Below are positions 13,895-27,959 of a DNA stretch of 64,000 nucleotides, in pieces (the stretch's first letter is position 1; each line of letters starts with the position of its first letter). The translations under genes were made by a program, and so were the position numbers. Source of the DNA: a virus (Duplodnaviria; Caudoviricetes); the IMG/VR virus record IMGVR_UViG_3300028805_003982; one strand, written 5' to 3'. Under the pieces are notes generated by a model. The model saw only the letters and a program-made list of their open reading frames with translations, was not told the DNA's origin and did no database searches.

Positions 13895-13969
13895 CGCAGG
13901 GATGTGCAGCGGATGCATAACGGGCCCATAACCCGAAGGCGGCAGGTTCGACTCCTGCTCCTGCAACCA
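13895..13969 (+). tRNA. tRNA-iMet(CAT)
   Basis: C1:A72 mismatch, GGG/CCC anticodon stem, CCA. Confidence 0.8.
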
Positions 13970-13976
13970 GATGCAT

Positions 13977-14052
13977 GGGTCAGAAGGCACAATGGGGTGC
14001 CGCGTGCCTTGCAAGCATGAAATGGCGGGTTCGATTCCCGTGTGATCCACCA
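13977..14052 (+). tRNA. tRNA-Ala(TGC)
   Basis: G3:U70, loop CTTGCAA, CCA. Confidence 0.8.
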
Positions 14053-14182
14053 AGGAAGTGAGGATCAAAGTGTGCAACAAACCGTAAGGGTTTATAGGAA
14101 GGTGGCTTGTCCTTATAGACGTGAGATCTTCCGACTTAGCAGTTCTGATGCCGTTCGCGGCGGTGCACACGCTGCCAAATCC

Positions 14183-14258
14183 ACCCGTATAGCTCAGCCG
14201 GGAGAGCGCCTGCCTTACAAGCAGGATGTCGGGGGTTCGAACCCCTCTGCGGGTACCA
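14183..14258 (+). tRNA. tRNA-Val(TAC)
   Basis: Cloverleaf, loop CTTACAA, CCA. Confidence 0.9.
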
Positions 14259-14448
14259 GATGCATCATACGGAAGGTTTCGTCACCCGTATGTAAAAACC
14301 TGAGGGTAAGGTCCTAAGTGAAACGAAACCGCTTAGGAATAGCGCAGGACAGTTAGCCCAGGTGTGGCCTATTCTCCGCGGAGATATAAAGCCCGTGCTT
14401 ATAGATTCCGCTGCGCATTTAATAATACAGAAATAAGGAGCATTCATT

Positions 14449-14757
14449 ATGTATTGCAAGCAATTCCAAGATATCATCGATTGCATAGGCATTGATGAAC
14501 CCTTTTATGTCATAAACGGAATGTATGAAGCACGTCTTATGGAAACCCGTGAAGGTGATATCCGCCTTGACATGTATGTCGTACTTGAGAAGCAACAAAA
14601 TGAAGTCATATCACGCGTAGTCAACCCATCTGATACATGTGATCTTGATATTGAACCTATGAAGAAAACGCAAAGACGGAGTTATTTCAATCAGTGGAAG
14701 CATCCGAATGAAAGACATGGCTTTTCTGAAGATACTTCTTCAAATATTTCTTTATAA
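14449..14757 (+). CDS. hypothetical protein
   Basis: AAGGAG RBS. Confidence 0.65.
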   Translation: MYCKQFQDIIDCIGIDEPFYVINGMYEARLMETREGDIRLDMYVVLEKQQNEVISRVVNPSDTCDLDIEPMKKTQRRSYFNQWKHPNERHGFSEDTSSNISL

Positions 14758-14812
14758 GTCTTATTCAAACGTCTTTAAGTATTTCCAAAACACATGATAG
14801 GAGAAGACTGAA

Positions 14813-15145
14813 ATGAATGAAGTTTTGAGTTATGATCAGTTAACCGACGAAGCGTTAGATCTGGATTCTTTTGATAACTTTCTGGTTAAGGACAAGAAGC
14901 GTATTGCCAGACGCCGGAAGAACATTACAAAGGCTCTCCGTAAGCGTTCGATCACTCGTCAATATGGTGTTTATGACGGCACTGACTGGTACAACAATCT
15001 GCACCAGTACAGCAAGAATAAGATACATTGTTCCTGCCAGATGTGTGCTTTCAATAACAAGAGGGCTCGTCGTAAGGAGTATACCTTGAGTGACCTCAAA
15101 AAGCTCGAATATGTAAGGTCACAGTTGGACGACTGGGCTTGTTAA
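14813..15145 (+). CDS. basic hypothetical protein with HCSCxxC motif
   Basis: AGGAG RBS; SKNKIHCSCQMC. Confidence 0.7.
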   Translation: MNEVLSYDQLTDEALDLDSFDNFLVKDKKRIARRRKNITKALRKRSITRQYGVYDGTDWYNNLHQYSKNKIHCSCQMCAFNNKRARRKEYTLSDLKKLEYVRSQLDDWAC

Positions 15146-15187
15146 CAAATAACGTTTGGAGAATGCCGCTGTCGGAGGGTTTTAAAC

Positions 15188-15685
15188 ATGAAGAACCGTA
15201 ATGTTAATAAGTACAATCGTGGCCTTCTTTCAGTAAGAAGATTAAAGCCGAATGATGATGCTGTTTGTATGCCGAATGCCAAAACAGATCATCTGAAGAT
15301 GTCCAAACGAAGAAGGGCGCAGCTTGAAAGCCAGAGAAGAAGATTCGGTTTTACTGATACCGAGACTTATGATCTGGATTATACGGCAAGTGTCTGGCTC
15401 TACATGCATCTTAAGATGTTCCTTGACGTCGGCGGGAAGATAGTTAATTTCGAATGGGAAGGGAACTGGTCTGATGAATTAAGAAAAGATCTTAAAGAAG
15501 TCGGTGTTGACGTTGAAAAATATCATAACGACAAACTCGTGTTTGAATACATCTGTACTCTGCTTGAGGAGGCGGACCGCATCTTTTGTAAAAGTTCTTC
15601 TCTTGAAGAAGACGACAAAGGACACAAGCTTCAGACCAAGGCTTTTAAGATCTTTGCGGTTATGATGCCGTACGCGTGGTGGTAA
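15188..15685 (+). CDS. hypothetical protein
   Basis: GGAGG RBS, 165 aa. Confidence 0.7.
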   Translation: MKNRNVNKYNRGLLSVRRLKPNDDAVCMPNAKTDHLKMSKRRRAQLESQRRRFGFTDTETYDLDYTASVWLYMHLKMFLDVGGKIVNFEWEGNWSDELRKDLKEVGVDVEKYHNDKLVFEYICTLLEEADRIFCKSSSLEEDDKGHKLQTKAFKIFAVMMPYAWW

Positions 15686-15686
15686 C

Positions 15687-16433
15687 ATGTCAAAATTATT
15701 TCCCAATTTCAGAAAGCCCCAAATTAAGATTCAAATGCCGGCTATTAACAGCCCTGAACTGAAACTGTTATCCAGGTTTGACCTTCATTTCATTTCGATA
15801 ACCGGGCTTAAGATCTTAGCGATCATCTCGATGCTGACAGACCATATCGGAGTAGCTCTTTTCCCGGATGTGCAGCTTTTAAGGATTATAGGCAGGATCG
15901 CGATGCCCTTATTTGCATTCTGCATTGCCGAAGGGTATATCCATACCCGGAACAAGCTGCATTATCTGGCCAGGCTCTGCATCTTTGCAGCCATAAGCGA
16001 GGTGCCTTATGATCTGATGAACTACGGACATATCGAGTTTGAAAACCAAAATATACTGTTTACTTTTGCCATTGCCGTATTAACCTTGGTAACGTTCGAG
16101 GCTCTTCGTAAAGAGAAGAGGGAAAACAGGATCATCTTTACCTTCCTGGTTTCGTTCCTCGCGTTCGGGATTGGGGGAGAATATCATGTGCTGGCAGTAG
16201 GACTTGTCTTTATATTCTACATGCTCCAAGCATATTCAACTGTCTTCAAAACCTTCGCGGGTATCTTTTATTCCTTTTTCTTTTTTGATTCAAGCATATA
16301 CGGATTTTCGCTGCTGGGCTTTGTGCCGATCCTGTTTTATAACGGTAAAAGAGGGAAGGGGCTGAAATGGTTGTTCTACATTTTTTATCCGGCTCACATG
16401 CTGATCTTATACCTTTTAAGTATCTTCTTTTGA
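15687..16433 (+). CDS. traX: TraX family membrane protein
   Basis: LKILAIISMLTDH, GRIAMPLF, EGYIHTRN, YNGKRG, FYIFYPAH. Confidence 0.85.
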   Translation: MSKLFPNFRKPQIKIQMPAINSPELKLLSRFDLHFISITGLKILAIISMLTDHIGVALFPDVQLLRIIGRIAMPLFAFCIAEGYIHTRNKLHYLARLCIFAAISEVPYDLMNYGHIEFENQNILFTFAIAVLTLVTFEALRKEKRENRIIFTFLVSFLAFGIGGEYHVLAVGLVFIFYMLQAYSTVFKTFAGIFYSFFFFDSSIYGFSLLGFVPILFYNGKRGKGLKWLFYIFYPAHMLILYLLSIFF

Positions 16434-16500
16434 AATTTAGGTAACAAATCTAAATTTTTATGTTATAATGCAATTGATGAAATAGAAAAGGAGAAGATGC

Positions 16501-16578
16501 ATGAGACACTTTGTATCGCAGTCAAGTTCATTGCAGCGCTGTCAAACCGGCAGTTCTGTATTGCCGCGGTCACGGTGA
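16501..16578 (+). CDS. putative attenuator leader peptide 1 (MRHFVSQSSSLQRCQTGSSVLPRSR)
   Basis: TGTTATAAT promoter at 16461, AAGGAG RBS at 16488, 25 codons including 7 Ser and 3 Gln. Confidence 0.8.
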   Translation: MRHFVSQSSSLQRCQTGSSVLPRSR

Positions 16579-16618
16579 TCTTCTCCTTGTCTTCATTACT
16601 GCTTTCTTTTAATGAGTG

Positions 16619-16651
16619 AGGGTCGTCATTGTGATGACCCTTTCAGTTTTT
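16619..16651 (+). terminator. intrinsic terminator of attenuator 1
   Basis: AGGGTCGTCA-ttg-TGATGACCCT followed by a T-rich tract, directly before the first tRNA. Confidence 0.8.
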
Positions 16652-16655
16652 ATAC

Positions 16656-16741
16656 GCCGTGTGTCCGGGATGGTGAGGAGGGCGCCTTGAAAGCGTTTGA
16701 CCGGGAACGGTTTGCAGGTTCGAATCCTGTGCACGGCGCCA
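16656..16741 (+). tRNA. tRNA-Ser(TGA)
   Basis: Loop CTTGAAA, long variable arm, GCCA. Confidence 0.9.
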
Positions 16742-16745
16742 AAAC

Positions 16746-16838
16746 GATCATGTAAGCCTAACTGGTAAGGCACCCGCTTGGAAAGCGGGGAGTAACCGGG
16801 CAACCGGCGTGAAGGTTCAAGTCCTTCCGTGATCGCCA
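16746..16838 (+). tRNA. tRNA-Ser(GGA)
   Basis: Loop TTGGAAA, long variable arm, GCCA. Confidence 0.9.
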
Positions 16839-16842
16839 AAAC

Positions 16843-16931
16843 GGCAGATAAATCCGGACGGCTCCGGACCCTGTTTCGAAAACAGGTGGTACTTAACAAA
16901 GTATGAGGATCGTCACCTCTGTCTGTCGCCA
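16843..16931 (+). tRNA. tRNA-Ser(CGA)
   Basis: Loop TTCGAAA, long variable arm, atypical T-loop, GCCA. Confidence 0.8.
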
Positions 16932-16936
16932 AATAT

Positions 16937-17012
16937 GCCTTCATAGCTCAGCAGGCAGAGCGCATCCATGGTAAGGATGAGGTCGCCGGTTCGATCCCGG
17001 CTGGAGGCTCCA
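16937..17012 (+). tRNA. tRNA-Thr(GGT)
   Basis: Loop ATGGTAA, CCA. Confidence 0.9.
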
Positions 17013-17016
17013 ACAC

Positions 17017-17091
17017 AGGCCGGTGGTATAATCGGTAACACGTCGGACTCTGACTCCGAAGTTCAAGGTTCAAGTCCTTGTCGGCCTGCCA
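17017..17091 (+). tRNA. tRNA-Gln(CTG)
   Basis: Loop CTCTGAC, GCCA. Confidence 0.9.
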
Positions 17092-17096
17092 ATCAT

Positions 17097-17171
17097 GCCG
17101 AGTTAGTCTATCGGATAGAATCCCCGGCTACGAACCGGGGGAGACAGGTTCGACTCCTGTACTCGGTGCCA
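17097..17171 (+). tRNA. tRNA-Arg(ACG)
   Basis: Loop CTACGAA, CCA. Confidence 0.9.
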
Positions 17172-17175
17172 ATAC

Positions 17176-17249
17176 TGTCGTGTGGTGAAGCGGTATCACA
17201 TCTGACTTTGACTCAGAGATCGCAGGTTCGACCCCTGCCACGACAACCA
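17176..17249 (+). tRNA. tRNA-Gln(TTG)
   Basis: Loop CTTTGAC, CCA. Confidence 0.9.
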
Positions 17250-17253
17250 ATAT

Positions 17254-17343
17254 GCGGATGTGGTGTAACAGGTATCACAACGGATTGCTAATCCGTCCTA
17301 CCCATTAAGGGTAGTGCACGTTCGAGTCGTGTCGTCCGCGCCA
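17254..17343 (+). tRNA. tRNA-Ser(GCT)
   Basis: Loop TTGCTAA, long variable arm, GCCA. Confidence 0.9.
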
Positions 17344-17430
17344 TACAGGTCAGAGGGTTCGGGAGCGCCGGGCAACACCTCTGTACAAGGTGCTTTGGGA
17401 AGATTGCCCTTATCTCTGGCCTGTTAATGT

Positions 17431-17504
17431 GCATCCGTGGCAGCGGTCTGCCGTGCGGTCTGCAAAACCGCATAAAGTGAGTTCGACTCTCACCGGATGC
17501 TCCA
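17431..17504 (+). tRNA. tRNA-Cys(GCA)
   Basis: Loop CTGCAAA, U73-CCA. Confidence 0.85.
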
Positions 17505-17575
17505 TTTGTTAATAGTGTTCTATATGTGTTTTTTGCGGTCATAATCTACCTAATCGTATGAATAGGAGGCTGGTT

Positions 17576-18601
17576 ATGAGCGAGTTCAAGAAGATAGATC
17601 TGTTTAAGACTTTTCCTTGGTTAAATCAGGAAGGTACCAGAGATCTGAAGTATAACGATGTTTACACTCTGGACGATAAGGCATACGTTGCTTTTGAAAA
17701 ACGCGGCGATTCAACTAATGCTTTTATGCTTCTCGCGGGGGATAAGAACATTCTCGATGAGATCAATCCCGTTGATGGTGTGGGCGGATGGATCAGAGAC
17801 TGCATTGATGTTCAGGACGAGTTCGAGGATTACGTTGATGAATATGTGGAAGCCAGTGAAATGGATGACCCCAGACCTTATTGGGCAGACCGGGGGGCAC
17901 GTATCGCTGATTTCCTTGGCGACGAGGATTATAAAGAAATTGAAAAGGAGTTCTTTGAGGAGTGGTGCAGAAACCCCGAAAATGCCAGAATGTTTACGAT
18001 CCTGACTTTGGCAGTCGATCCTGACAACGTTAACATGTTCGGTAAGAACGCCGACGGTGAAGTGTGTTTGCTGGACCCCGACAGAAGATTTTATTCCGAG
18101 AACTGGGAAGAAGAGAATCTGACTGAAGCTGATCTGCCCAAGATGCAGAAGATAGTTGAAGAGGTTTTGAAAAAGGGCGTTAAGCAGGTATATCGCGACA
18201 CGGATTCTGAAATTAAAGAGGTCGATTTTACCAAAGGTGAATTAACCGCCTACAACGATTTTGCGATCATCGTTAGCCGTTTGTGTTCTCACGGAAGCAT
18301 GATGGGTTCTGTTATAAGGCCTTTGGAAGACGGCAGGTTTGAAGTAACCGGTTGCCGCGTAGTTAAAATGATAACCAGACAGGATTTCGATACGGATCTT
18401 GAATACGACAAGGCAGTTGATGAAATGATGAAGACTGCCGACGGAGTAACGGGGGAGTTCGTTACCGACGATCTTATCGCTTACGTTGAAGTAAAAGAGT
18501 TCCCCGATTCTTCTTATACGATAGATAAAGTAACCTTTTTTGGTAAGCCTTTGACGTTCCCCGATAATGACGTTGACGGCAACGGCAGGAATATGGACTA
18601 A
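17576..18601 (+). CDS. acidic hypothetical protein
   Basis: AGGAGG RBS; about 341 aa. Confidence 0.75.
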   Translation: MSEFKKIDLFKTFPWLNQEGTRDLKYNDVYTLDDKAYVAFEKRGDSTNAFMLLAGDKNILDEINPVDGVGGWIRDCIDVQDEFEDYVDEYVEASEMDDPRPYWADRGARIADFLGDEDYKEIEKEFFEEWCRNPENARMFTILTLAVDPDNVNMFGKNADGEVCLLDPDRRFYSENWEEENLTEADLPKMQKIVEEVLKKGVKQVYRDTDSEIKEVDFTKGELTAYNDFAIIVSRLCSHGSMMGSVIRPLEDGRFEVTGCRVVKMITRQDFDTDLEYDKAVDEMMKTADGVTGEFVTDDLIAYVEVKEFPDSSYTIDKVTFFGKPLTFPDNDVDGNGRNMD

Positions 18602-18614
18602 AGGAGATCAGACC

Positions 18615-19334
18615 ATGGACGATAAATACTTATACACAGGTAATTGGTACAAAACAGAAGACGGCAAGATCCTTCACATTGCTCAGGATGACTGCCCTCA
18701 AAACCCCCGTGAATGGGACGGGTGGCTTGGTAAGATTTTTTCCGTTTCCCGTTACGTGACAGGTGAAACCGATAAGGAAGGCCTTAAGTGCTGGGACGAT
18801 CTGTTACAGAAATACGGGGTAGAACAGAGCGGTACTGATATGCAGAAGGATTTTCCCGTTGACTGCAGAAATCTCATAGAAGCAGCAAAAGAGAAGGGAG
18901 ACGTTCTCCTTCCTATGTCCATATATGACCACAGCGGAATAACCCTTTATGTCGGTCTTCCCAGCGACCATTTTGACGGGCGTTGGGATTGTTCGTTTGT
19001 AGGTTTCATGATCGCGGACGGCAAGGATCTTGCTGAGCGTAAGCTTTCTTACGATGACGCTGTACAGATTCTTGAAGGCGAAGTAGCCATCTTGGACTGC
19101 TATTATACCGGTTCCGTTTACGGATATATTCTTTATGACGCGGAGTCCTTAGATGAGATCGATTCCTGCTGGGGCTTTTTCGGCAGCGAGATCAAGTCTT
19201 TTGAAGAGAGTGTTGGTCTGAAGATAACAGAAAATCTCGGCAGCGGCTATTCCGACGTCAACGAGTGTTTCGAGAGCAACAGGGAGTCCTTTGAGGAAGA
19301 AGCGAATCTTCGTAATATCAGGGGGTTTGAGTAA
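18615..19334 (+). CDS. phage-type hypothetical protein
   Basis: NPREWD, YDHSG, WDCS, DSCWGFFG motifs; AAGGAG RBS. Confidence 0.75.
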   Translation: MDDKYLYTGNWYKTEDGKILHIAQDDCPQNPREWDGWLGKIFSVSRYVTGETDKEGLKCWDDLLQKYGVEQSGTDMQKDFPVDCRNLIEAAKEKGDVLLPMSIYDHSGITLYVGLPSDHFDGRWDCSFVGFMIADGKDLAERKLSYDDAVQILEGEVAILDCYYTGSVYGYILYDAESLDEIDSCWGFFGSEIKSFEESVGLKITENLGSGYSDVNECFESNRESFEEEANLRNIRGFE

Positions 19335-19963
19335 TGGACGTGATCGACGGCAGATTTGAACCAGTTAAGCGTACTGCCGTGGACGGAAAGACCTGGTGGG
19401 TAGTATATGACAATAAAAGGCATGGTTACAGCTCTTACATTTGCCATGGTAAGTACGAAACCAGGAAACAGTGCGAGCAGGCGATAAAAGCGTCGTATAA
19501 GTATTTTTGCGGTGTCTCCGGGGAAGCCGGCAGATCTGTAGAAAGGAGAGAAAAAATGACAAACTATAATGACCTGAGAGACGGTCAAGAGTTCTATGCT
19601 AATGGTTACAAGAAAGGCTACGAGGACGCAAAGAAAGAGTTTGAAAGTAAGATTATTACAAAGGCTATCAGCGAAGAATTAGAAGCATTACCCAAAGAAA
19701 TTGATGGTGATAAGTTATTGATGCTATCAACGTTTGGGGCAGGAGTTAGATTTAATATCCTTGGTAAATTAAAAGAAAGTAAGAAAGATGACATGTCTCC
19801 TGATGTGATAAGCAAGATCTTAGCAGATTTCATATTGGATGACATTGAGAACGCCGATGAGGATTTTGTTAAAGAAAAGTTTGAAACCTTAGGGGTTACA
19901 CAGGAATTGTTAGATACGTTAGGCGTCGATTACCGCCTGGAAGGGGAAAAACCTAGTCTTTAA
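19334..19963 (+). CDS. hypothetical protein (possibly a fusion)
   Basis: Internal RBS and ATG near 19556; N-terminal domain resembles the C-terminus of 19979..20761. Confidence 0.6.
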   Translation: MDVIDGRFEPVKRTAVDGKTWWVVYDNKRHGYSSYICHGKYETRKQCEQAIKASYKYFCGVSGEAGRSVERREKMTNYNDLRDGQEFYANGYKKGYEDAKKEFESKIITKAISEELEALPKEIDGDKLLMLSTFGAGVRFNILGKLKESKKDDMSPDVISKILADFILDDIENADEDFVKEKFETLGVTQELLDTLGVDYRLEGEKPSL

Positions 19964-19978
19964 GAAGATGGGTGCGAT

Positions 19979-20761
19979 ATGGGGGATAATATGAGCAATC
20001 AAAAATATGTTGCGATACTCTGTAAGAGCAGTGAAAACGACGAAAGCATTGTCCTTGTTTCTTCTGATGAGCTGTTGGAGGTCATTCAAAATCCCGGCAG
20101 CTACAGATACAGTCCATCTAACGGGATAATGTACGGGGATGAAGAGATCAATAAATGCTTTAATCTTAATAAGATCAAAGATTTTGTCCTCATTGATTCT
20201 AACAGTCTTCCGGGCAAGTCCTCCGGATGGCCTAACGTAGTCCCGTCCTGGGCTAAGGTTTCCACTAAGATCAACAATCCTCAGTATATTAAGCTGGATT
20301 CTTTGGCTCCTTACGTCGAGATAGTTGCCATGGACCCGATAGAATTTGACATCAAGTCAATGGAATCGGTTAAGAAGGCAGCCAAACAGGTTATCGATAA
20401 CATTGCTGCTTTAGAGGATACTTGTTCGGAGATTTGTTATAAGTACGATCCTTACGACAACATAGACCCGAATGAATTAAGACGGATCTTATTCGATGAT
20501 ATTGTTCTTGTATCAAACCCCAGATTTGTTCCCATGCAGATAACATCCGAAGACGGATCTTTCTGGTGGCAGATCTACGATGCCAAGAACAGGGAGTTTA
20601 ATCATCTCGGGGGCACCAAGCACTATCCAACAAAAGAAAAATGTCAGGCGGCTATTGATTATTCTCAGGCACACGGGCTCCTGGCAACTGTTGATAAAGA
20701 CATATTTACCTGGGCTCCGAAACAGCCGGAAGAAGTAGATGAACCGGGACACGATCTGTGA
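19979..20761 (+). CDS. hypothetical protein
   Basis: 260-aa ORF. Confidence 0.7.
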   Translation: MGDNMSNQKYVAILCKSSENDESIVLVSSDELLEVIQNPGSYRYSPSNGIMYGDEEINKCFNLNKIKDFVLIDSNSLPGKSSGWPNVVPSWAKVSTKINNPQYIKLDSLAPYVEIVAMDPIEFDIKSMESVKKAAKQVIDNIAALEDTCSEICYKYDPYDNIDPNELRRILFDDIVLVSNPRFVPMQITSEDGSFWWQIYDAKNREFNHLGGTKHYPTKEKCQAAIDYSQAHGLLATVDKDIFTWAPKQPEEVDEPGHDL

Positions 20762-20789
20762 TCATAATAAAAGTAAAGGAGATAATATT

Positions 20790-21485
20790 ATGTACGTTTC
20801 TCAGAATAATCAGAAGTTATACTTAAATCATTGGGGATTTAATGCCTGCAGGCTTATGAGTATGTTGGCTACAGTCATCGAAGCTGCCGGCGGAGTGGTT
20901 GATTACAGATATCAGAAGACAGCGCTTGTCTGCGACAGGACCGTTTATGATAAAGCTCGTGAAAAGCTGGATATGTTAGATCACTTTAAGCAGGTTCTTG
21001 ATAAGAATCCTGAAATGAAAGATCAGATCCAGCCTAAGCTCGAAGTGCTTGAAAAGGAAGCTGAAGAGCTTGCAGGAACACCTGAAGTGTTTGTTCCTTG
21101 TGAGTTCCAGACGCATCTTAAATTCATGATCAACGACACTTTATATTATTATCAGGTTGACGACAATCCTTTTATGGAGTTCTATTATCAGAAGACTCCG
21201 ATCGTTAATGGAAGATACAGTAAAGATGCTTGTCTTATGGAAGCTTCAAAGCTCTGGTACGATGATTCCTTCTTAAAGGGCGGAGTTTCAGATGCAGATA
21301 TCAAGAAGGCAGCTGAAACGCTTGCGGGCGCATTGTTCAATGCACCCGAGTCTGAGATCATCCGCAGCAAGAAAACGATCAGCGTGCCCAACGCACATAA
21401 TAACGGGCATCACAAGGAAGTTGTTTTTGAGCCTGAACGTTTTTCCACGGAGCTGCCGCAGGGAAGAGAGACGCCGTCTTTGTAA
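20790..21485 (+). CDS. hypothetical protein
   Basis: AAGGAG RBS. Confidence 0.7.
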   Translation: MYVSQNNQKLYLNHWGFNACRLMSMLATVIEAAGGVVDYRYQKTALVCDRTVYDKAREKLDMLDHFKQVLDKNPEMKDQIQPKLEVLEKEAEELAGTPEVFVPCEFQTHLKFMINDTLYYYQVDDNPFMEFYYQKTPIVNGRYSKDACLMEASKLWYDDSFLKGGVSDADIKKAAETLAGALFNAPESEIIRSKKTISVPNAHNNGHHKEVVFEPERFSTELPQGRETPSL

Positions 21486-21575
21486 GGCAAAAAACACCTG
21501 TTGAAAAATAAAATTTAGAAAATTACGATTTTTCTGTTGTATTTTTAAAATGTGGTGTTATAATAGTAAGTGATG

Positions 21576-21790
21576 AAGGAAGTGCCTGTCCGACATCTGA
21601 TTACAAAAGACCTAAGGGCTGAAACGGGTCAGGTCCAATCGCCCGGTTAGGTGTGTGAGGGAAGTGAGGTTGGTCGCCGCAAGGTGTAAAGTCCTCCGCA
21701 CTCAAAGTGATGATGAAACATGCATCCGCCTAATCTTTAACCTGAAGGGTCCCCAAGATTGTAATCAGTTGTGAGATAAGGGCTTCCTCT
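21576..21790 (+). ncRNA. rod-shaped structured RNA, 6S-like
   Basis: Promoter TTGTAT-N16-TATAAT at 21537-21564; nested helices GAGGAAG/CTTCCTC, CTGATTACAA/TTGTAATCAG, GGTTAGGTG/CGCCTAATC around a central bubble. Confidence 0.55.
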
Positions 21791-21820
21791 TTTTATACTT
21801 AAACGAAAGGATAAAAGACT

Positions 21821-21979
21821 ATGGTTACTGTTGTTATGAAGAGACATAACGATCTGATGCCCAAGGCGTATGAGAATGATACGCTCGGTTTCGCATGGTC
21901 TTTAGTTCCGGCTATATTCGTACGTACATTGGGTACAGGCAAAGAATATATCGGAAGCAAGGGGCGATTAAGATGTTAA
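21821..21979 (+). CDS. putative attenuator leader peptide 2 (52 aa, codon-diverse)
   Basis: GAAAGGA RBS; MVTVVMKRHNDLMPKAYENDTLGFAWSLVPAIFVRTLGTGKEYIGSKGRLRC; 38 distinct codons. Confidence 0.75.
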   Translation: MVTVVMKRHNDLMPKAYENDTLGFAWSLVPAIFVRTLGTGKEYIGSKGRLRC

Positions 21980-22020
21980 TCACAGCTTTTGTTTAAGCTC
22001 AAACAGAATAGAGAAGCATC

Positions 22021-22060
22021 AAGGATCGCCCGAAGAGAATAAAATCGGACGATCCTTTTT
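22021..22060 (+). terminator. intrinsic terminator of attenuator 2
   Basis: AAGGATCG..CCGA / TCGG..CGATCCTT hairpin plus T tract upstream of the tRNA array. Confidence 0.8.
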
Positions 22061-22103
22061 AATTCTCGTGAACATTGACAACTGAATATTTTCTTTTAAA
22101 CAT

Positions 22104-22177
22104 TCCCCTGTCATTTAAAGGTAGGATGGCTGACTGTTAATCAGTTTATGGAAGTTCGATTCTTCCCGGGGGAGCCA
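22104..22177 (+). tRNA. tRNA-Asn(GTT)
   Basis: Loop CTGTTAA, GCCA. Confidence 0.85.
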
Positions 22178-22181
22178 ATAT

Positions 22182-22256
22182 ATCCGCATGGTGTAATCGG
22201 TAGCACGGCAGTCTCCAAAACTGCTTGTCGGGGTTCGAGTCCTCGTGCGGGTGCCA
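22182..22256 (+). tRNA. tRNA-Trp(CCA)
   Basis: Loop CTCCAAA, GCCA. Confidence 0.9.
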
Positions 22257-22352
22257 TATGAAAAGTAAAAAGGAAAAAGTCAAGGATACATTGTTGACCA
22301 AGGTGAAGTCCGGAATGATCTGAGGAAGAGAATGTAACACCGATAAGTATTC

Positions 22353-22421
22353 TGAGCAATGGTGTAAGCGGAAGCACGCAGAGTGATGGCCGGAAGTGCA
22401 GGTTCAAGTCCCGCTTGCTCA
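22353..22421 (+). pseudogene. tRNA-like element lacking a proper anticodon stem and CCA
   Basis: TGAGCAA/TTGCTCA acceptor, D-arm and GTTCAAGTC T-loop present. Confidence 0.55.
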
Positions 22422-22435
22422 CTTTTCATTCTTAT

Positions 22436-22510
22436 GCCCCTGTGGTGTAACCGGTAACATGACTGACTCTGACTCAGTTATTCAAGGTTCAAATCCTTGC
22501 GGGGGTGCCA
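22436..22510 (+). tRNA. tRNA-Gln(CTG)
   Basis: Loop CTCTGAC, GCCA. Confidence 0.9.
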
Positions 22511-22596
22511 TTAGAAGGTTAGTAAAGAAAACAGGCACTCTTTACGGATCTTCTGCGGGGATGATGAAAAACAGGCACTTTCTTCATCCCTTACAT

Positions 22597-22683
22597 GGGT
22601 CGGTAAACCGTAACTGGTAGCGGGACGGACTGTAAATCCGTTGTCGAGAGACTCTGTAGGTTCAAGTCCTACCCGGCCCACCA
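22597..22683 (+). tRNA. tRNA-Tyr(GTA)
   Basis: Loop CTGTAAA, long variable arm. Confidence 0.9.
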
Positions 22684-22692
22684 TTTTAAAAC

Positions 22693-22768
22693 GGATCGGT
22701 AGCTCAGTCGGTAGAGCGAGGGACTGAAAATCCCTGCGTCACAGGTTCGATTCCTGTCCCTTCCACCA
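22693..22768 (+). tRNA. tRNA-Phe(GAA)
   Basis: Loop CTGAAAA, CCA. Confidence 0.9.
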
Positions 22769-22771
22769 GAT

Positions 22772-22846
22772 GTTCTCCTAGTTCAACGGCAGAACAACGG
22801 ACTCTTAATCCGTGAGATCGGGGTTCAAATCCCCGGGGGAGCACCA
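22772..22846 (+). tRNA. tRNA-Lys(CTT)
   Basis: Loop CTCTTAA, CCA. Confidence 0.9.
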
Positions 22847-22914
22847 TAACCATTAAAGAGAAAGGAGAAGACACATGTTGCACAAACAGAAGTTAAACGT
22901 AGGTGTATTGACAA

Positions 22915-22989
22915 GCGTCTATAGTTTAACGGTAGAACAGCGGACTTTTACTCCGTAAGATGAGGGTTCGAATCCCTCTGGGCGTACCA
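22915..22989 (+). tRNA. tRNA-Lys(TTT)
   Basis: Loop CTTTTAC, CCA. Confidence 0.85.
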
Positions 22990-23062
22990 TATATGGGTCT
23001 GTAGCTCAACCAGGAGAGTTATCTCTAAAGAGTTGCAAAACTCCCGCAGCGCCGTTTTATAA

Positions 23063-23140
23063 CACGCGTTGGAGAAGAGGTCTAACTCGCCGGCCTTTCA
23101 AGTCGGTATTCGCTGGGTTCAAATCCCGCACGCGTGGCCA
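23063..23140 (+). tRNA. tRNA-Glu(TTC)
   Basis: Loop CTTTCAA, GCCA. Confidence 0.85.
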
Positions 23141-23266
23141 AAGAAACTCTAAGTGAAACGAGTAGGTCGTGTCTTGACACTAAGGCGATAACGATGCATC
23201 TGACTAAACTGAAGTGACGAAAGAAGTAACTGAAAAGGAGTCGCTCTCCCTGAGTTTCTGATCTAT

Positions 23267-23340
23267 GGCCCTTTCTTCTATCGGCAGGAAAGCAGGTTCT
23301 CAGCCTGACAAGCAGGGTTCAACTCCCTGAAGGGTCACCA
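23267..23340 (+). tRNA. tRNA-Glu(CTC)
   Basis: Loop TTCTCAG, CCA. Confidence 0.85.
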
Positions 23341-23436
23341 ATGGGCAGCGGTTGTCCGGCGGCATAGAAAGGGTTCAAGTCCTGCACGCGCGGGTTCGAC
23401 TCCCGGCGTACATGGTGTCGAAATGCCGCATTTCAT

Positions 23437-23513
23437 ATCCTCGTGGCGGAACGGGCAGACGCAGACGGTTCAGAGCCGTAAAGTTACAGGTTCAAATCCT
23501 GTCGGGGATACCA
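23437..23513 (+). tRNA. tRNA-Leu(CAG), short variable arm
   Basis: Loop TTCAGAG, ACCA. Confidence 0.8.
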
Positions 23514-23517
23514 AAAT

Positions 23518-23595
23518 GGCCTCGTAGCAGAATCTGGCATATGCACTGCACTAAGGATGCAGGGTTTGCGGGTTCGAATCCCGCCGGGGCTACCA
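23518..23595 (+). tRNA. tRNA-Leu(AAG), short variable arm
   Basis: Loop CTAAGGA, ACCA. Confidence 0.8.
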
Positions 23596-23599
23596 ATAT

Positions 23600-23673
23600 C
23601 CGGGTGTAGCGTAATGGCAGCGTTCGTGCCTTGGGAGCATGAGGTGTGGGTTCAACTCCCGCCACTCGGACCA
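23600..23673 (+). tRNA. tRNA-Pro(TGG)
   Basis: Loop CTTGGGA, ACCA. Confidence 0.9.
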
Positions 23674-23678
23674 TTTAT

Positions 23679-23752
23679 CGTAGCTTCTTCTAATGGTAGG
23701 AAGACCGTCTGATACGCGGTTAATGTCTGTTCGATTCAGTCAGCTACGACCA
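23679..23752 (+). tRNA. tRNA-Ile(GAT)
   Basis: Loop CTGATAC, ACCA. Confidence 0.8.
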
Positions 23753-23829
23753 TGGGGCATAGCTCAACAGGTCAGAGCTCCGGCCTTATAAGCCGGCGGT
23801 TCAGGGTTCGAGTCCCTGTGCCCCTACCA
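23753..23829 (+). tRNA. tRNA-Ile(TAT)
   Basis: Loop CTTATAA, ACCA. Confidence 0.85.
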
Positions 23830-23832
23830 AAT

Positions 23833-23909
23833 GTCTGATTGGCGCAACTGGCAGACGCGGCTGACTCAAAATCAGTTTCTTCAGGGTTCGAGTCCCTGAT
23901 CAGACACCA
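23833..23909 (+). tRNA. tRNA-Leu(CAA), short variable arm
   Basis: Loop CTCAAAA, ACCA. Confidence 0.85.
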
Positions 23910-24074
23910 GTCGGGAGTACACGCGAGAATCACAAGCGGGCCGACGGTACATCGGCAGCCTGAACAGGATTAGGTGCACATGAGTCCTTAAGGGCAACGG
24001 CGGGGTAGTGTCCGTCCTCCCACACCAACGAGTTCTTTGCCTTTTTCTCTCCAAAAGAAATCGGTGACCGGTAT

Positions 24075-24151
24075 GCTTCCGTAGCTCCAATTGGCAGAGC
24101 GGGTGCCTTGTAATCACCAGGTTGTGAGTTCGAGTCTCACCGGAAGCTCCA
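24075..24151 (+). tRNA. tRNA-Thr(TGT)
   Basis: Loop CTTGTAA, CCA. Confidence 0.9.
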
Positions 24152-24155
24152 ACAT

Positions 24156-24230
24156 ACTCCTGTCGTTCAACTGAAAGGACAGCACTCTTCTAAAGTGTCG
24201 ATCAAGGTTTGAGTCCTTGCAGGAGTACCA
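24156..24230 (+). tRNA. tRNA-Arg(TCT)
   Basis: Loop CTTCTAA, CCA. Confidence 0.85.
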
Positions 24231-24355
24231 TTAAAAAACACGATAGCTTGGTAATTTGCTGAAGTTAGCTGCAAGGATAGGATATCGGGTAATCAGCAAA
24301 ACCTTAGTCCGAAAGTAGCAGAGAGGGTTTTTGAAGCCGTGTTTCCCTCATTTAT

Positions 24356-24432
24356 GGGGCCATAGCTCAGTTTGGGAGAGCGCCTGCCCTGCAAGCAGGA
24401 GGTCGCGGGTTCGATGCCCGCTGGTTCCACCA
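24356..24432 (+). tRNA. tRNA-Ala(TGC)
   Basis: GGGGCCA start with G3:U70, loop CCTGCAA. Confidence 0.9.
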
Positions 24433-24578
24433 TTGCAAATTAAGCTGCCGGAATGAACCATTCCTATATCAGCGGTCCTGCTGATGAAACTAAACGATTG
24501 AAAGAACAACCAGGCAGCAGGAATTTCTGCAAAGCCTTTATTTACAAGGCTTTAGCAAAAACCGGGAAGGGAGGGACT

Positions 24579-24668
24579 GTATATAAAAGTATTATTTTGT
24601 ATTGCTTTGTATTGTGATGTACCGATTAAATAATACGTATTTATTTGTATGTCTTTGTATTGCTGTAT
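24579..24668. repeat. 10-bp-phased GTAT repeats
   Basis: GTAY at 24579, 24589, 24599, 24609, 24619 and again at 24637, 24647, 24657. Confidence 0.65.
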
Positions 24669-24720
24669 AGTGTCAAACACAGTTATATATTTACAAAACA
24701 ATACGCGATCTTTGATAAAT

Positions 24721-24797
24721 GCCCGTATAGCTCAGCTGGGATGAGCATCTGCCTTACAAGCAGGAGGCCCAAGGTTCGAACCCTTGTGCGGGCACCA
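24721..24797 (+). tRNA. tRNA-Val(TAC)
   Basis: Loop CTTACAA, CCA. Confidence 0.9.
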
Positions 24798-24802
24798 AAT
24801 AT

Positions 24803-24877
24803 GCAGGTATTGTATAACGGCTATTACGCTACCTTGCCAAGGTAGAGATGAGGGTTCGATTCCCTCTACTTGCTCCA
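24803..24877 (+). tRNA. tRNA-Gly(GCC)
   Basis: Loop TTGCCAA, TCCA. Confidence 0.9.
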
Positions 24878-24882
24878 AATAT

Positions 24883-24969
24883 GGGTGAGTATCCCGTAAC
24901 AGGCAGCGGACCAGACTGTAAATCTGGTGTCATTCGACTCAGGGGGTTCGAGTCCCTCGTCACCCACCA
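24883..24969 (+). tRNA. tRNA-Tyr(GTA)
   Basis: Loop CTGTAAA, long variable arm. Confidence 0.9.
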
Positions 24970-24976
24970 ATCATAC

Positions 24977-25051
24977 GGCCCTATGGTATAACGGCTATTA
25001 TGCCGGACTGTCTATCCGGAGACCGGGGTTCAACTCCCCGTGGGGTCGCCA
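24977..25051 (+). tRNA. tRNA-Asp(GTC)
   Basis: Loop CTGTCTA, GCCA. Confidence 0.9.
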
Positions 25052-25056
25052 ATTAT

Positions 25057-25131
25057 GTGCCATTGGTGTAATCGGCAGCACCTTAGTCTTCCAAACTAAC
25101 GGTACGGGTTCAAGTCCCGTATGGCACTCCA
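25057..25131 (+). tRNA. tRNA-Gly(TCC)
   Basis: Loop CTTCCAA, TCCA. Confidence 0.9.
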
Positions 25132-25135
25132 GTAT

Positions 25136-25210
25136 CGCGGCGTATTTTAATGGTAGAATGCGATCCTCATAAGATCGTCGGTACGGGTTCAAGTCCCGTC
25201 GCCGCCACCA
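25136..25210 (+). tRNA. tRNA-Met(CAT) (Met or Ile2 identity unresolved)
   Basis: Loop CTCATAA, ACCA. Confidence 0.8.
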
Positions 25211-25214
25211 AAAT

Positions 25215-25289
25215 GTGGTTATTAGTGTAACGGCAGCACGGCAGATTGTGGCTCTGCAAGCATAGGTTCGACCCCTGTATTTCCACCCA
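25215..25289 (+). tRNA. tRNA-His(GTG)
   Basis: G-1:C73, loop TTGTGGC. Confidence 0.85.
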
Positions 25290-25292
25290 AAT

Positions 25293-25366
25293 GCTTCTAT
25301 CGTTCAAGGGAAGGACAGCACTCTTCGAAAGTGCTTATCGGGGTTCGAATCCCTGTGGAAGCACCA
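25293..25366 (+). tRNA. tRNA-Arg(TCG)
   Basis: Loop CTTCGAA, CCA. Confidence 0.85.
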
Positions 25367-25378
25367 ATTCCTTAACAT

Positions 25379-25454
25379 GCTTCCGTAGCTCAGCCGGCAG
25401 AGCGGCGGTATCGTAAACCGCAGGTCGTGAGTTCGATCCTCGCCGGAAGCTCCA
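25379..25454 (+). tRNA. tRNA-Thr(CGT)
   Basis: Loop ATCGTAA, CCA. Confidence 0.9.
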
Positions 25455-25634
25455 ATTATTTTTGCTTATACGGCGGTCTACGCGGCACCTTTTGGATTAT
25501 CCGCGGTTATAATTAAATCATAATGATGCCCTCCGAAGTCTTCGGACTGACGGTTAAAGACGAGCGTTTTCGAACGTGAGCAAAGTAGGTGATAAGTCAT
25601 CCAACTGCGAGTCGCAAAAGGCAGATTTATAAAT

Positions 25635-25710
25635 GCTCCTGTAGCTCAGTCGGTAGAGCACGTGACTTTTAATCACGGGGCCAAGAGTTCGAACCTCTTC
25701 AGGGGCACCA
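25635..25710 (+). tRNA. tRNA-Lys(TTT)
   Basis: Loop CTTTTAA, CCA. Confidence 0.9.
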
Positions 25711-25714
25711 TTAT

Positions 25715-25791
25715 CTCCCGGTACCAGAACTGGCATATGGACCGGACTTAAAATCCGGGGTTTGCGGGTTCGACCCCCGCGCGGGAGACCA
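25715..25791 (+). tRNA. tRNA-Leu(TAA), short variable arm
   Basis: Loop CTTAAAA, ACCA. Confidence 0.8.
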
Positions 25792-25971
25792 TAACCGCAG
25801 GAAGTGTATAGCGGTATAACAAGCGGTAAACATCTTCTGGCAGGGCGCAGACTCATGAGAAAAGAACAGCCACTGCCGTCGAATCCTATAGCCCTTGGTG
25901 TGACAGGACTATGCGTGAGAAAACACACCGATCATCGCTAGGTATTTTATTAATAAGAAAGGAGAGACATT

Positions 25972-26463
25972 ATGTTCAGATCGGCAAGCGGTCAGGAAAT
26001 GACTGTGGACGAGATAATCAATAAGATCGCCCGTTACATAGCATCTGACCCTGAAGCATCTTACGAGTTTACGGTGGGTACGGACAGCCAGAACCACGAC
26101 AGGACAAAGATGGTCGAGGTTATCGCGGTACACCGGAAGGGAAGGGGCGGAATATATTTCTATAACGTCGAGTATGTCCGCCGCATTAACAGTTTAAAGC
26201 AGAAGATCAATGAAGAAACGGCAAGAAGCCTTAACATCGCAAACGGGCTTATCGACAGGCTTGAATTAAGGCTTTATGAAGATAACATTGATCTGACGAC
26301 TTTAGATGTTTCTTTCCAGATCCACTGCGATATAGGGCCTTGCGGCAAGACGTCCATGCTCATCCAGGAGATCGTAGGATGGGTAACAAGCTGCGGCTAT
26401 ATCTGTCTTATCAAGCCTGACAGTTATGCAGCAAGCGGCATTGCCGATAAGCACAGTAAATGA
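25972..26463 (+). CDS. RNase H-like YkuK (DUF458) family protein
   Basis: VGTDSQ, IHCDIG, KPDSYAASGIADKHSK. Confidence 0.85.
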   Translation: MFRSASGQEMTVDEIINKIARYIASDPEASYEFTVGTDSQNHDRTKMVEVIAVHRKGRGGIYFYNVEYVRRINSLKQKINEETARSLNIANGLIDRLELRLYEDNIDLTTLDVSFQIHCDIGPCGKTSMLIQEIVGWVTSCGYICLIKPDSYAASGIADKHSK

Positions 26464-26502
26464 TACCAGTTCCTTAACTTTATTTGGTTAAGGAGCTTTT
26501 AT

Positions 26503-26577
26503 ACTTCCGTCGTTCAACAGGAAGGACAGCAGTTTCCTAAACTGCCGATCAAGGTTCGAGCCCTTGCGGGAGTGCCA
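26503..26577 (+). tRNA. tRNA-Arg(CCT)
   Basis: Loop TTCCTAA, GCCA. Confidence 0.85.
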
Positions 26578-26651
26578 TTTATATACAAAACGACCCTATA
26601 CAGGCGGTTAAAAGGGTCCAAATAAGGTATAATATAAAAAGGAGGAAGGTT

Positions 26652-27017
26652 ATGGACTTTGAGGTATACAAAAGTGCGGTTTGTCAACAAGTCAAAACTC
26701 TGGGCGCACAAGAGTTTATTAAACGCACGCTGATAACGGATGAAATAACTGGGCTCATGGAAGATCGGCAGTATTGCGAAGCGTTGTATTTGTTGGCCAT
26801 GGTGGACTATTTATCCAATAAATTGCAAATCCCTTTATATTCTAAATATGAGTCCTTTCGCAGTGCAAAGCTGGATCACAGAATATATCCTCGTGATATA
26901 GAGTTGTTGTCCCGCTTGTTTCATGACGATTCTCTTAAGCAACATGCATGGGATCAGGCTATTCCTGAATTTAAGAGACATAACATTGTCGAAAGTGAGG
27001 TGGAAGATGTCTGCTAA
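26652..27017 (+). CDS. putative antitoxin/partner of the downstream nucleotidyltransferase
   Basis: Own promoter and RBS; overlaps next gene; YLLAMVDYLS and IPEFKRHNIVE motifs. Confidence 0.6.
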   Translation: MDFEVYKSAVCQQVKTLGAQEFIKRTLITDEITGLMEDRQYCEALYLLAMVDYLSNKLQIPLYSKYESFRSAKLDHRIYPRDIELLSRLFHDDSLKQHAWDQAIPEFKRHNIVESEVEDVC

Positions 27018-27726
27018 AAAGATGTTAACAAAAGCTGAGTTTGACTTTTATCTCGCTAAGTTAGCTACCCTCCTTAAGAAAGAATACGGCAAAGGCTTTG
27101 AAGGCGAACTAATTGTTGTGGGCGGTGCGGCGATTTTGGCAAACTATCATTTTCGGACTATGTCCGCGGATATAGATGCCATTATTCGGGCAAATGCAAG
27201 AATAAAAGATGCCATAAACAAAATAAGCGATGTGTATGATTTGCCTAGCGATTGGCTTAACTCGGATTTTGTGAAAACAACATCGTTTTCGGGAAAATTG
27301 GCAGAAGTATCTCGATATTATCGTTCATTCTGTAATGGTGTGTTAACAGTCCGAACGGTTAATGCTGAATACTTAATCGCGATGAAATTAAGGTCTTTTC
27401 GACCCTATAAAAAGGATCTTTCTGACATCGTAGGCATTATTGGTGAACATGACAAAGAAGGTAACAGCATAACAATTGAGAGTATTATAAAAGCATACAA
27501 ATACTTATATGACGCCGAGTTGCCAGACAAAGCTCTCTTGTTTTTACAATCCGTGTTTGATAATAATGATATTTTGGGGTTATATCAAAACATAAGTGAA
27601 CAAGAACGAAAAGATAAAATAAAGTTAATCGATTTTGAGAATAAATATCCCGGAGTTCTATCAGAAGACAACTTAGAAGATATTTTGCAAAATCTTAATA
27701 ATCATAATTCGGGCATTGCCGATTAA
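27007..27726 (+). CDS. nucleotidyltransferase, DUF6036/AbiEii-like
   Basis: IVVGGAA...ADIDA Pol-beta-type motif, WLN, LIAMKL, KDLSD. Confidence 0.75.
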   Translation: MSAKKMLTKAEFDFYLAKLATLLKKEYGKGFEGELIVVGGAAILANYHFRTMSADIDAIIRANARIKDAINKISDVYDLPSDWLNSDFVKTTSFSGKLAEVSRYYRSFCNGVLTVRTVNAEYLIAMKLRSFRPYKKDLSDIVGIIGEHDKEGNSITIESIIKAYKYLYDAELPDKALLFLQSVFDNNDILGLYQNISEQERKDKIKLIDFENKYPGVLSEDNLEDILQNLNNHNSGIAD

Positions 27727-27748
27727 TACATTTTCTCTCTAATTATGT

Positions 27749-27824
27749 GCCCGATTGGCGCAATTGGCAGAGCAACGGTATCGTAAACCGTAGGTTGCGG
27801 GTTCAAATCCCACATCCGGCTCCA
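27749..27824 (+). tRNA. tRNA-Thr(CGT)
   Basis: Loop ATCGTAA, CCA. Confidence 0.8.
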
Positions 27825-27882
27825 CTACCTCAACGGGGCGTCGGTTTTCTTTTAGAGGTCTATACTATAACCGTTATAATAA

Positions 27883-27959
27883 CTCTCGGTGGCGGAATTG
27901 GCATACGCAGCGGACTTAAAATCTGTAAGTTACGGGTTTGACTCCCGTTCGAGAGACCA
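27883..27959 (+). tRNA. tRNA-Leu(TAA), short variable arm
   Basis: Loop CTTAAAA, ACCA. Confidence 0.8.

Follow-up and report, generated by a model that had tools for sequence, protein, structure and literature searches.

A possible leader-peptide attenuator of tRNA genes: the codons of a 25-codon reading frame match the nine-tRNA block that follows it

The enterobacterial leaders trpL, hisL, leuL, thrL and ilvGMEDA share one layout: a promoter-proximal short open reading frame (ORF) rich in the monitored codons, a terminator before the regulated genes, and mutually exclusive pairings between segments (1:2, 2:3 and 3:4), with the stop codon at segment 2. Several kinds of codon are sensed by the ilv and thr leaders. 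The nearest precedent for such control of the decoding machinery is pheM-pheST, in which a leader peptide controls phenylalanyl-tRNA synthetase. In Firmicutes, T-box riboswitches sense tRNA status and control translation-related genes through the choice between a terminator and an antiterminator, and ermK, vmlR and lmo0919 are ribosome-stalling transcription attenuators of resistance genes. Bacterial and phage tRNA genes are generally regarded as growth-rate controlled or constitutive. An attenuator-like leader might stand before pheV of E. coli. In a 2020 paper, pheU and pheV are described as monocistronic genes whose leaders are 3-4 nt long (PMC7049720). We found no published account of leader-peptide attenuation of tRNA genes or arrays. 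Here we analyse a 64,000-nucleotide stretch of DNA (the window) from the virus record IMGVR_UViG_3300028805_003982, in which a block of nine tRNA genes stands behind a short leader with a 25-codon ORF (leader 1) and an array of 29 tRNA genes stands behind a second one (leader 2).

We propose that leader 1 is a ribosome-mediated leader-peptide transcription attenuator with trp/his logic that gates the nine-tRNA operon, and we assign this reading a probability of about 0.5. Good evidence comes from the codons, and the switch in RNA structure is weak. As in the trpL and hisL type, leader 1 has a promoter-proximal ORF with a usable Shine-Dalgarno sequence (SD) and start codon, an enrichment of the relevant codons, and a terminator with no later promoter. 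The sensing of several kinds of codon would recall the ilv and thr leaders. It differs in that the regulated genes are tRNAs and not biosynthetic enzymes, in that nine isoacceptors for five amino acids are sampled with one to three codons each and not with runs of a single codon, and in that segment 1 is the ribosome-binding site (RBS), the antiterminator is weaker and the host is likely a Firmicute. With pheM, leader 1 would share a leader peptide that reports codon decoding and controls a component of the decoding machinery, but in that case a synthetase is controlled rather than tRNA genes and a single amino acid is monitored. A T-box would serve the same end by another mechanism: it binds uncharged tRNA directly, reads one specifier codon and needs no ribosome, and neither leader matched the T-box or any other Rfam family. 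The ermK, vmlR and lmo0919 leaders are alike in their short upstream ORF, their choice between terminator and antiterminator and their read-through when the leader ribosome stalls, and they indicate that the mechanism is workable in Firmicutes; the stall there, however, comes from an antibiotic on the ribosome and not from codon-specific tRNA supply. It is plausible that the logic known from trp, his and ilv attenuation has here been applied to tRNA genes.

An earlier note on the window had described a promoter, an RBS, a 25-codon ORF, an intrinsic terminator and nine tRNA genes, and each of these was recovered, the ninth tRNA at a relaxed threshold (Table 1). The promoter matches the consensus at 10 of 12 positions and carries the additional TG. 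The ORF encodes the peptide MRHFVSQSSSLQRCQTGSSVLPRSR; its SD, GGAG, lies 7 nt before the ATG at 16501, and the corresponding spacer is 6-11 nt in 18 larger ORFs of the element that have a GGAG. A CU-rich tract continues from segment 2 to 16609. The stem of the terminator is followed by TCAGTTTTTATAC, and the terminator ends 5 nt upstream of tRNA-Ser(TGA). No further promoter-like site was found between the terminator and the tRNA genes, and the block must therefore be transcribed through the hairpin.

The codon composition of this ORF is evidence for the proposal. Under standard wobble rules, the nine tRNAs of the block read 15 codons, which account for 14.7% of codon usage in the ORFs of the element. 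In leader 1, 13 of the 24 codons after the ATG belong to this set, and each of the nine tRNAs has at least one codon. The earlier note had claimed that a 14-codon core serves every downstream anticodon, and this was borne out: all nine are decodable, five through exact codons (TCG, CAG, TCA, CAA, ACC) and four through G:U or inosine wobble (AGT, TGT, TCT, CGC). The core was the single best of 127,918 six-frame 14-codon windows across the whole window. Across the element's real ORFs, 11,218 in-frame 24-codon windows were scored and all fell short of nine-fold coverage (maximum eight); in random ORFs built on the element's codon usage, such coverage had p = 3e-4 and 13 in-set codons had p = 5e-6. 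Leader 1 favours rarer synonymous codons (TCA three times, TCG, AGT twice, CAA, CGC), and each isoacceptor is thereby sampled. A codon match well beyond that of the element's genes or of random ORFs is thus supported. When 12 unrelated phage tRNA-array loci were crudely screened, no codon-matched upstream ORF was found; the arrangement is therefore neither universal nor trivial.

The order of events that we infer, from translation of the ORF to read-through, is as follows. Transcription would start near 16476, and ribosomes would occupy the RBS while its complement is still to be transcribed. With unhindered reading of the ORF, the first ribosome would arrive at the stop codon and cover segment 2; the terminator hairpin (16618-16642) would form, and most transcripts would stop 5 nt short of the first tRNA. 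Without ribosome loading, the RBS would pair with segment 2, and termination would follow as before. Nearly all codons of the core belong to the Ser, Gln, Arg, Cys and Thr tRNAs of the downstream block; if decoding stalls in the core, the stalled ribosome and those following it would keep the RBS covered. Segment 2, now free, would pair with the 5' arm of the terminator, and RNA polymerase would enter the tRNA genes. The outcome would be negative feedback, with exactly the scarce tRNAs replenished.

The pairings on which this order of events depends can be found in the RNA. The RBS region and the facing part of segment 2 are 93% complementary over 15 nt, and this pairing, which the earlier note had pointed out, occurs in the minimum-free-energy (MFE) structure. 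The transcript from 16476 to 16655 is predicted to fold as one long hairpin plus the terminator (-60.6 kcal/mol, z = -3.8). An antiterminator spanning the stop codon, which had likewise been suggested, can form between GGUGAUCUUC (16574-16583) and GAGGGUCGUC (16618-16627), with 10 pairs of which four are G:U; the local fold that contains it reaches -12.5 kcal/mol, compared with -17.0 kcal/mol for the terminator. The stop codon thus lies inside a segment able to pair either with the RBS or with the 5' arm of the terminator, and a four-segment layout is present.

A second leader in the same window bears on how leader 1 should be read. The window has just two copies of the motif GTTATAAT-N5/6-TGATGAA, against a chance expectation of 0.01; they lie at 16462-16481 and 21557-21577 and head the two tRNA leaders and nothing else. 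The motif may represent a shared promoter plus initial transcribed sequence. Behind its second copy stands leader 2, whose 52-codon ORF has its own SD and whose terminator precedes the 29-tRNA array starting at 22104. This ORF samples 26 of the 27 distinct anticodons of the array. Random ORFs drawn from codon usage cover 19.8 +/- 1.9 of them (p = 7e-4 for 26), none of 9,976 real in-frame windows reached 26, and shuffles scored on the best of three frames gave p = 0.009. The last codons and the stop of leader 2 lie within a strand (21961-21977) that pairs with the 5' arm of the terminator at -24.8 kcal/mol, against -18.3 kcal/mol for the terminator itself. With no ribosome present, or with one that has advanced no further than codon 40, this antiterminator stabilises the arm by about 10-11 kcal/mol; once the ribosome has reached codon 46, a later codon or the stop, about 2 kcal/mol is left. 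On these models, leader 2 is a clean translation-dependent terminator, in which masking of the antiterminator by a ribosome at the stop codon is clear; in leader 1 the corresponding pairing exists, but with four G:U pairs and an effect of 2-3 kcal/mol. The switch of leader 2, together with the shared promoter and layout, adds credibility to the attenuator reading of leader 1. A 234-nt structured RNA (21570-21803), closed by a long-range helix and followed by UUUUUAUAC, separates the second promoter from the ORF of leader 2; it had no match in Rfam.

Table 1. Features of leader 1, the nine-tRNA block, the overlapping frame and the sister unit (window coordinates).
Feature	Position	Strand	Details
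Sigma-70-type promoter of leader 1	16441..16469	+	-35 GTAACA (16441-16446), 17-nt spacer, extended -10 TGtTATAAT (16461-16469)
Segment 1, purine-rich RBS region	16484..16498	+	SD GGAG 16490-16493; complementary to segment 2
ORF of leader 1	16501..16578	+	25 sense codons plus TGA
Codon core	16516..16557	+	14 codons (codons 6-19); 12 of 14 read by block tRNAs; all nine tRNAs represented
Segment 2	16574..16592	+	Includes stop codon 16576-16578; anti-RBS 16578-16592; antiterminator 5' strand 16574-16583
Intrinsic terminator	16618..16651	+	11-bp stem 16618-16628/16632-16642, loop TTG, interrupted T-run to 16651
Putatively regulated block	16656..17504	+	Ser(TGA), Ser(GGA), sub-threshold Ser(CGA), Thr(GGT), Gln(CTG), Arg(ACG), Gln(TTG), Ser(GCT), 87-nt structured spacer, Cys(GCA)
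Alternative 40-codon frame	16497..16619	+	Hydrophobic peptide; stop touches terminator; SD spacing 3 nt
Sister unit (leader 2)	21557..22060	+	Promoter motif, 234-nt structured RNA, 52-codon ORF 21821-21979, antiterminator 21961-21977 x 22014-22031, terminator 22021-22060

Leader 2 also invites a variant of the proposed model, in which the attenuators are coupled to translation and sense its overall capacity, so that any slowing of the leader ribosome leads to read-through and the identity of the codons is secondary. Ribosome availability, host shut-off, or the action of an antibiotic or toxin would be candidate signals. Its architecture would be the same, the ribosome-stalling attenuators of Firmicutes such as vmlR and ermK do respond to ribosome inhibitors, and it fits leader 2 well: with 19 of the 20 amino acids sampled, that leader would respond to almost any decoding defect. 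Leader 1, however, is specifically enriched in the codons of its own block, whereas leader 2 takes only 6 of 51 codons from that set and has no Gln codon; both leaders split the code as their arrays do. The specific codon composition of leader 1 therefore favours codon specificity over general sensing of translation rate, and we consider the capacity sensor improbable.

If both leaders act as proposed, the element would regulate its own tRNA supply by feedback at codon resolution: two attenuators under one type of promoter would divide the genetic code between them, each gating the array that reads its codons and restocking tRNAs limited by the cell or by a tRNA-cutting host defence. We hold this wider view tentatively and would put it somewhat short of even odds; linking the tRNA block to anticodon nucleases is pure speculation.

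Several results count against the proposal for leader 1. The regulatory codons lie outside segment 1, unlike those of trpL and hisL, and a queue of ribosomes must therefore be assumed. The antiterminator is weak. When the switch was modelled by folding with ribosome footprints masked, the terminator of the full-length RNA formed in every ribosome state, although full-length equilibrium folding is uninformative here because attenuation is kinetic. In a transcript ending past the 5' arm, the stabilisation of the arm by upstream pairing was 4.5 kcal/mol in the absence of ribosomes and likewise with a single stalled one, 5.5 kcal/mol with a ribosome at the stop, and 7.4-8.3 kcal/mol with a stalled ribosome plus a second on the RBS. 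The gain from stalling before the terminator is made is only 2-3 kcal/mol, and it requires the second ribosome. The masked-folding check put forward in the earlier note thus gave a switch predicted to run in the right direction, but one that is small, dependent on the queue and absent with full-length RNA. Dinucleotide-preserving shuffles of 16497-16619, read in any frame, weakened the probability of nine-fold coverage to p = 0.01 for 14 codons and 0.07 for 24 codons; these shuffles are conservative, composition itself being part of the signal. Eight tRNAs of the block were called by ARAGORN at default settings, but the ninth, Ser(CGA) at 16847-16931, was called only at a 90% threshold and was missed by Rfam; its predicted fold is a cloverleaf, and CCA is encoded. 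Coupling of transcription and translation is loose in at least some Firmicutes. No diverged homologues were found in viral, genome and metagenome collections. Finally, the 25-codon frame is a +1 shift of an open 40-codon hydrophobic frame, and with the 25-aa peptide held fixed such hydrophobicity of the other frame has p = 0.006. The attenuation reading of the earlier note therefore stands in part: the codon match, the SD spacing, the stop-containing segment with two pairing partners, the lack of a later promoter and the presence of leader 2 speak for it, and the antiterminator, the place of the codons and the shuffles speak against it.

Another explanation would be a non-coding structured leader RNA whose terminator is constitutive and leaky or whose 3' end is a hairpin; the ORF would go untranslated, and local composition would produce the codon match as a side effect. 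The promoter would then drive the tRNAs via a partial stop, or RNase P would release a leader RNA of about 175 nt ending in the hairpin, with the SD buried in either case. The MFE structure does bury the SD in the 15-nt helix, the whole leader being one long hairpin; the terminator forms in all equilibrium models; and composition-preserving shuffles still reach nine-fold coverage in a 24-codon window at the frequency given above. A 12-bp hairpin plus TTTTATAC (26468-26504) also stands directly before tRNA-Arg(CCT), where it follows an ordinary 163-codon ORF; its junction with the tRNA is the same as that at 16643-16656. The same shuffles, however, yielded the in-set density of 12 of 14 codons with p = 5e-5, the SD and its spacing are as in real genes, and Rfam offered no family for the leader. 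There is, moreover, a second, unrelated leader with a like codon excess and a switch that depends on ribosome position, and a non-coding RNA leaves the codon statistics of both leaders unexplained. We regard this explanation as unlikely.

The overlapping frame raises a different possibility, that the real gene is the 40-codon frame, encoding a small hydrophobic membrane peptide, possibly type I toxin-like, and that the 25-codon frame, rich in Ser, Gln and Cys, is merely its +1 off-frame. The mRNA would have a sequestered RBS and end in a hairpin, and an RBS-sequestering fold is typical for type I toxin mRNAs. The peptide is hydrophobic, to the degree given above, and its stop abuts the terminator. 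The off-frames of genes for hydrophobic proteins are also rich in TCN, TGN, CAG and CGN codons: when the 40-codon peptide was fixed and its synonymous codons were resampled, the chance of nine-fold coverage rose about 30-fold, to p = 0.009. The dense core nevertheless remained an outlier under this control (p = 4e-5), and the SD spacer of the ATG at 16497 is 3 nt, outside the 6-11 nt of the element. The 40-codon peptide had no Pfam match and no homologue among 5.8 billion proteins; against 1.84 billion representatives, the only match was a marginal one to an 854-aa protein. No antisense (minus-strand) promoter was found at leader 1. Judged by SD spacing, the 25-codon frame is favoured and the 40-codon frame is probably not the one translated; that the latter is the real gene seems to us very improbable. 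Membership in the type I toxin-antitoxin systems was rejected on the spacing, the lack of a minus-strand promoter and the lack of Pfam matches or homologues, despite the hydrophobic frame. A mere off-frame artefact was likewise rejected as the source of the codon match, since it explains only part of the signal. Based on the controls in both directions, the codon match and the hydrophobicity are entangled.

The only relatives of the leaders were two contigs from one sequencing run, L015 and L001, with 98-99% identity. L015 carries TraX, leader 1 and the first tRNAs. Three substitutions were observed in its transcribed leader: G:U to A:U at 16476, G:C to G:U at 16564, and G:U to G:C at 16635 (terminator pair 16625:16635). 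All three keep or improve pairs, as would also be expected of a non-coding RNA; through the change at 16564, the 25-codon frame has TCG (Ser) in place of CCG (Pro). L001 contains leader 2 along with the downstream genes; the changes in the leader 2 ORF are Leu to Pro, Pro to Ser and one synonymous, and the 234-nt structured RNA is nearly invariant. The amino-acid changes in the ORFs of both contigs are non-conservative. These changes fit a function of RNA and codons rather than of the peptides, but are far too few for a test. In L001, a gene for a nucleotidyltransferase (NTP_transf_2; 81-420) lies directly upstream of tRNA-Ser(GCT) and tRNA-Cys, and the tRNA block is therefore mosaic between close relatives.

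Searches farther afield returned no other copy of either leader. Viral contigs scanned with the downstream protein and with a 22-mer of the leader gave no match; a tRNA-Ser 3'-end pattern recovered 12 unrelated phages with other array layouts, and a second tRNA pattern gave no match. The neighbouring protein of 341/347 aa had one relative at 98% and one at 53% identity, the latter without upstream tRNAs. TraX relatives in GTDB genomes (at most 55% identity) were host-type genes without the leader, and the 19 matches of a metagenome pattern scan were all unrelated. The leader 2 peptide had no relatives outside its own 90% cluster. A search of 16400-17560 against Rfam matched the tRNA and tRNA-Sec models to the tRNA genes and no cis-regulatory family; all other matches up to E = 10 were far below gathering thresholds and consisted of unrelated models on tRNA genes and, in leader 1, two snoRNA models (E 2.8 and 4.1).

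If the proposal is true, tRNA transcription would respond directly to codon decoding, and this would add a new level of control. Such feedback would explain how near-complete tRNA sets can be kept on large mobile elements without constant cost, and would provide a testable link between element-borne tRNAs and the depletion or cleavage of host tRNAs. The leaders would also be compact natural multi-codon sensors of decoding speed for chosen codons. The presence of two differently composed leaders in one element opens the idea to simple codon swaps.

Around the nine-tRNA block, two further features were observed. The 87-nt spacer between tRNA-Ser(GCT) and tRNA-Cys (17344-17430) has a closed multi-branch fold without CCA, gave no tRNA call even with relaxed thresholds and is identical in L001. 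Just past tRNA-Cys, at 17517-17545, GTTCTA and CATAAT are separated by 17 nt, with a G at -14; this fits the non-canonical promoter class of the genome, and the five ORFs downstream may have their own promoter. Within the large array, a gap at 22353-22422 holds a sub-threshold Leu(CAG), called by ARAGORN only at an 80% threshold, which may be a decayed tRNA. In the 289-nt gap before tRNA-Val(TAC) there are three direct copies of CTTTGTATTG (24585-24665), which may mark an internal promoter or operator region of this array.

The window, in which ARAGORN called 43 tRNA genes, forms part of a contig of about 235 kb. Genes of the element include an anaerobic ribonucleotide reductase, thymidylate synthase, a UvrD-like helicase, a sigma factor, two tyrosine integrases, TnpB, and PcfJ-like and TraX-like proteins, along with numerous ORFs without a family match; it may be a large mobile element of gut or rumen bacteria, either a phage or a conjugative element. 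The neighbouring proteins gave no functional clue in Pfam, PHROGs, PADLOC or the ESM Atlas. The closest TraX relatives sit in rumen and gut Clostridia, and the host is therefore probably a Firmicute, likely of the Clostridia. The 44 tRNAs at 13895-27959 of the window read, under strict wobble, every sense codon except GTT, GTC, CCT, CCC, GCT and GCC; four-way U34 reading for Val, Pro and Ala would complete their decoding. In several Clostridia genomes (L020, L026, L034), tRNA genes (Pro, Thr, Tyr and others) come immediately after a chromosomal TraX homologue, an order that echoes the TraX-tRNA neighbourhood of the element.

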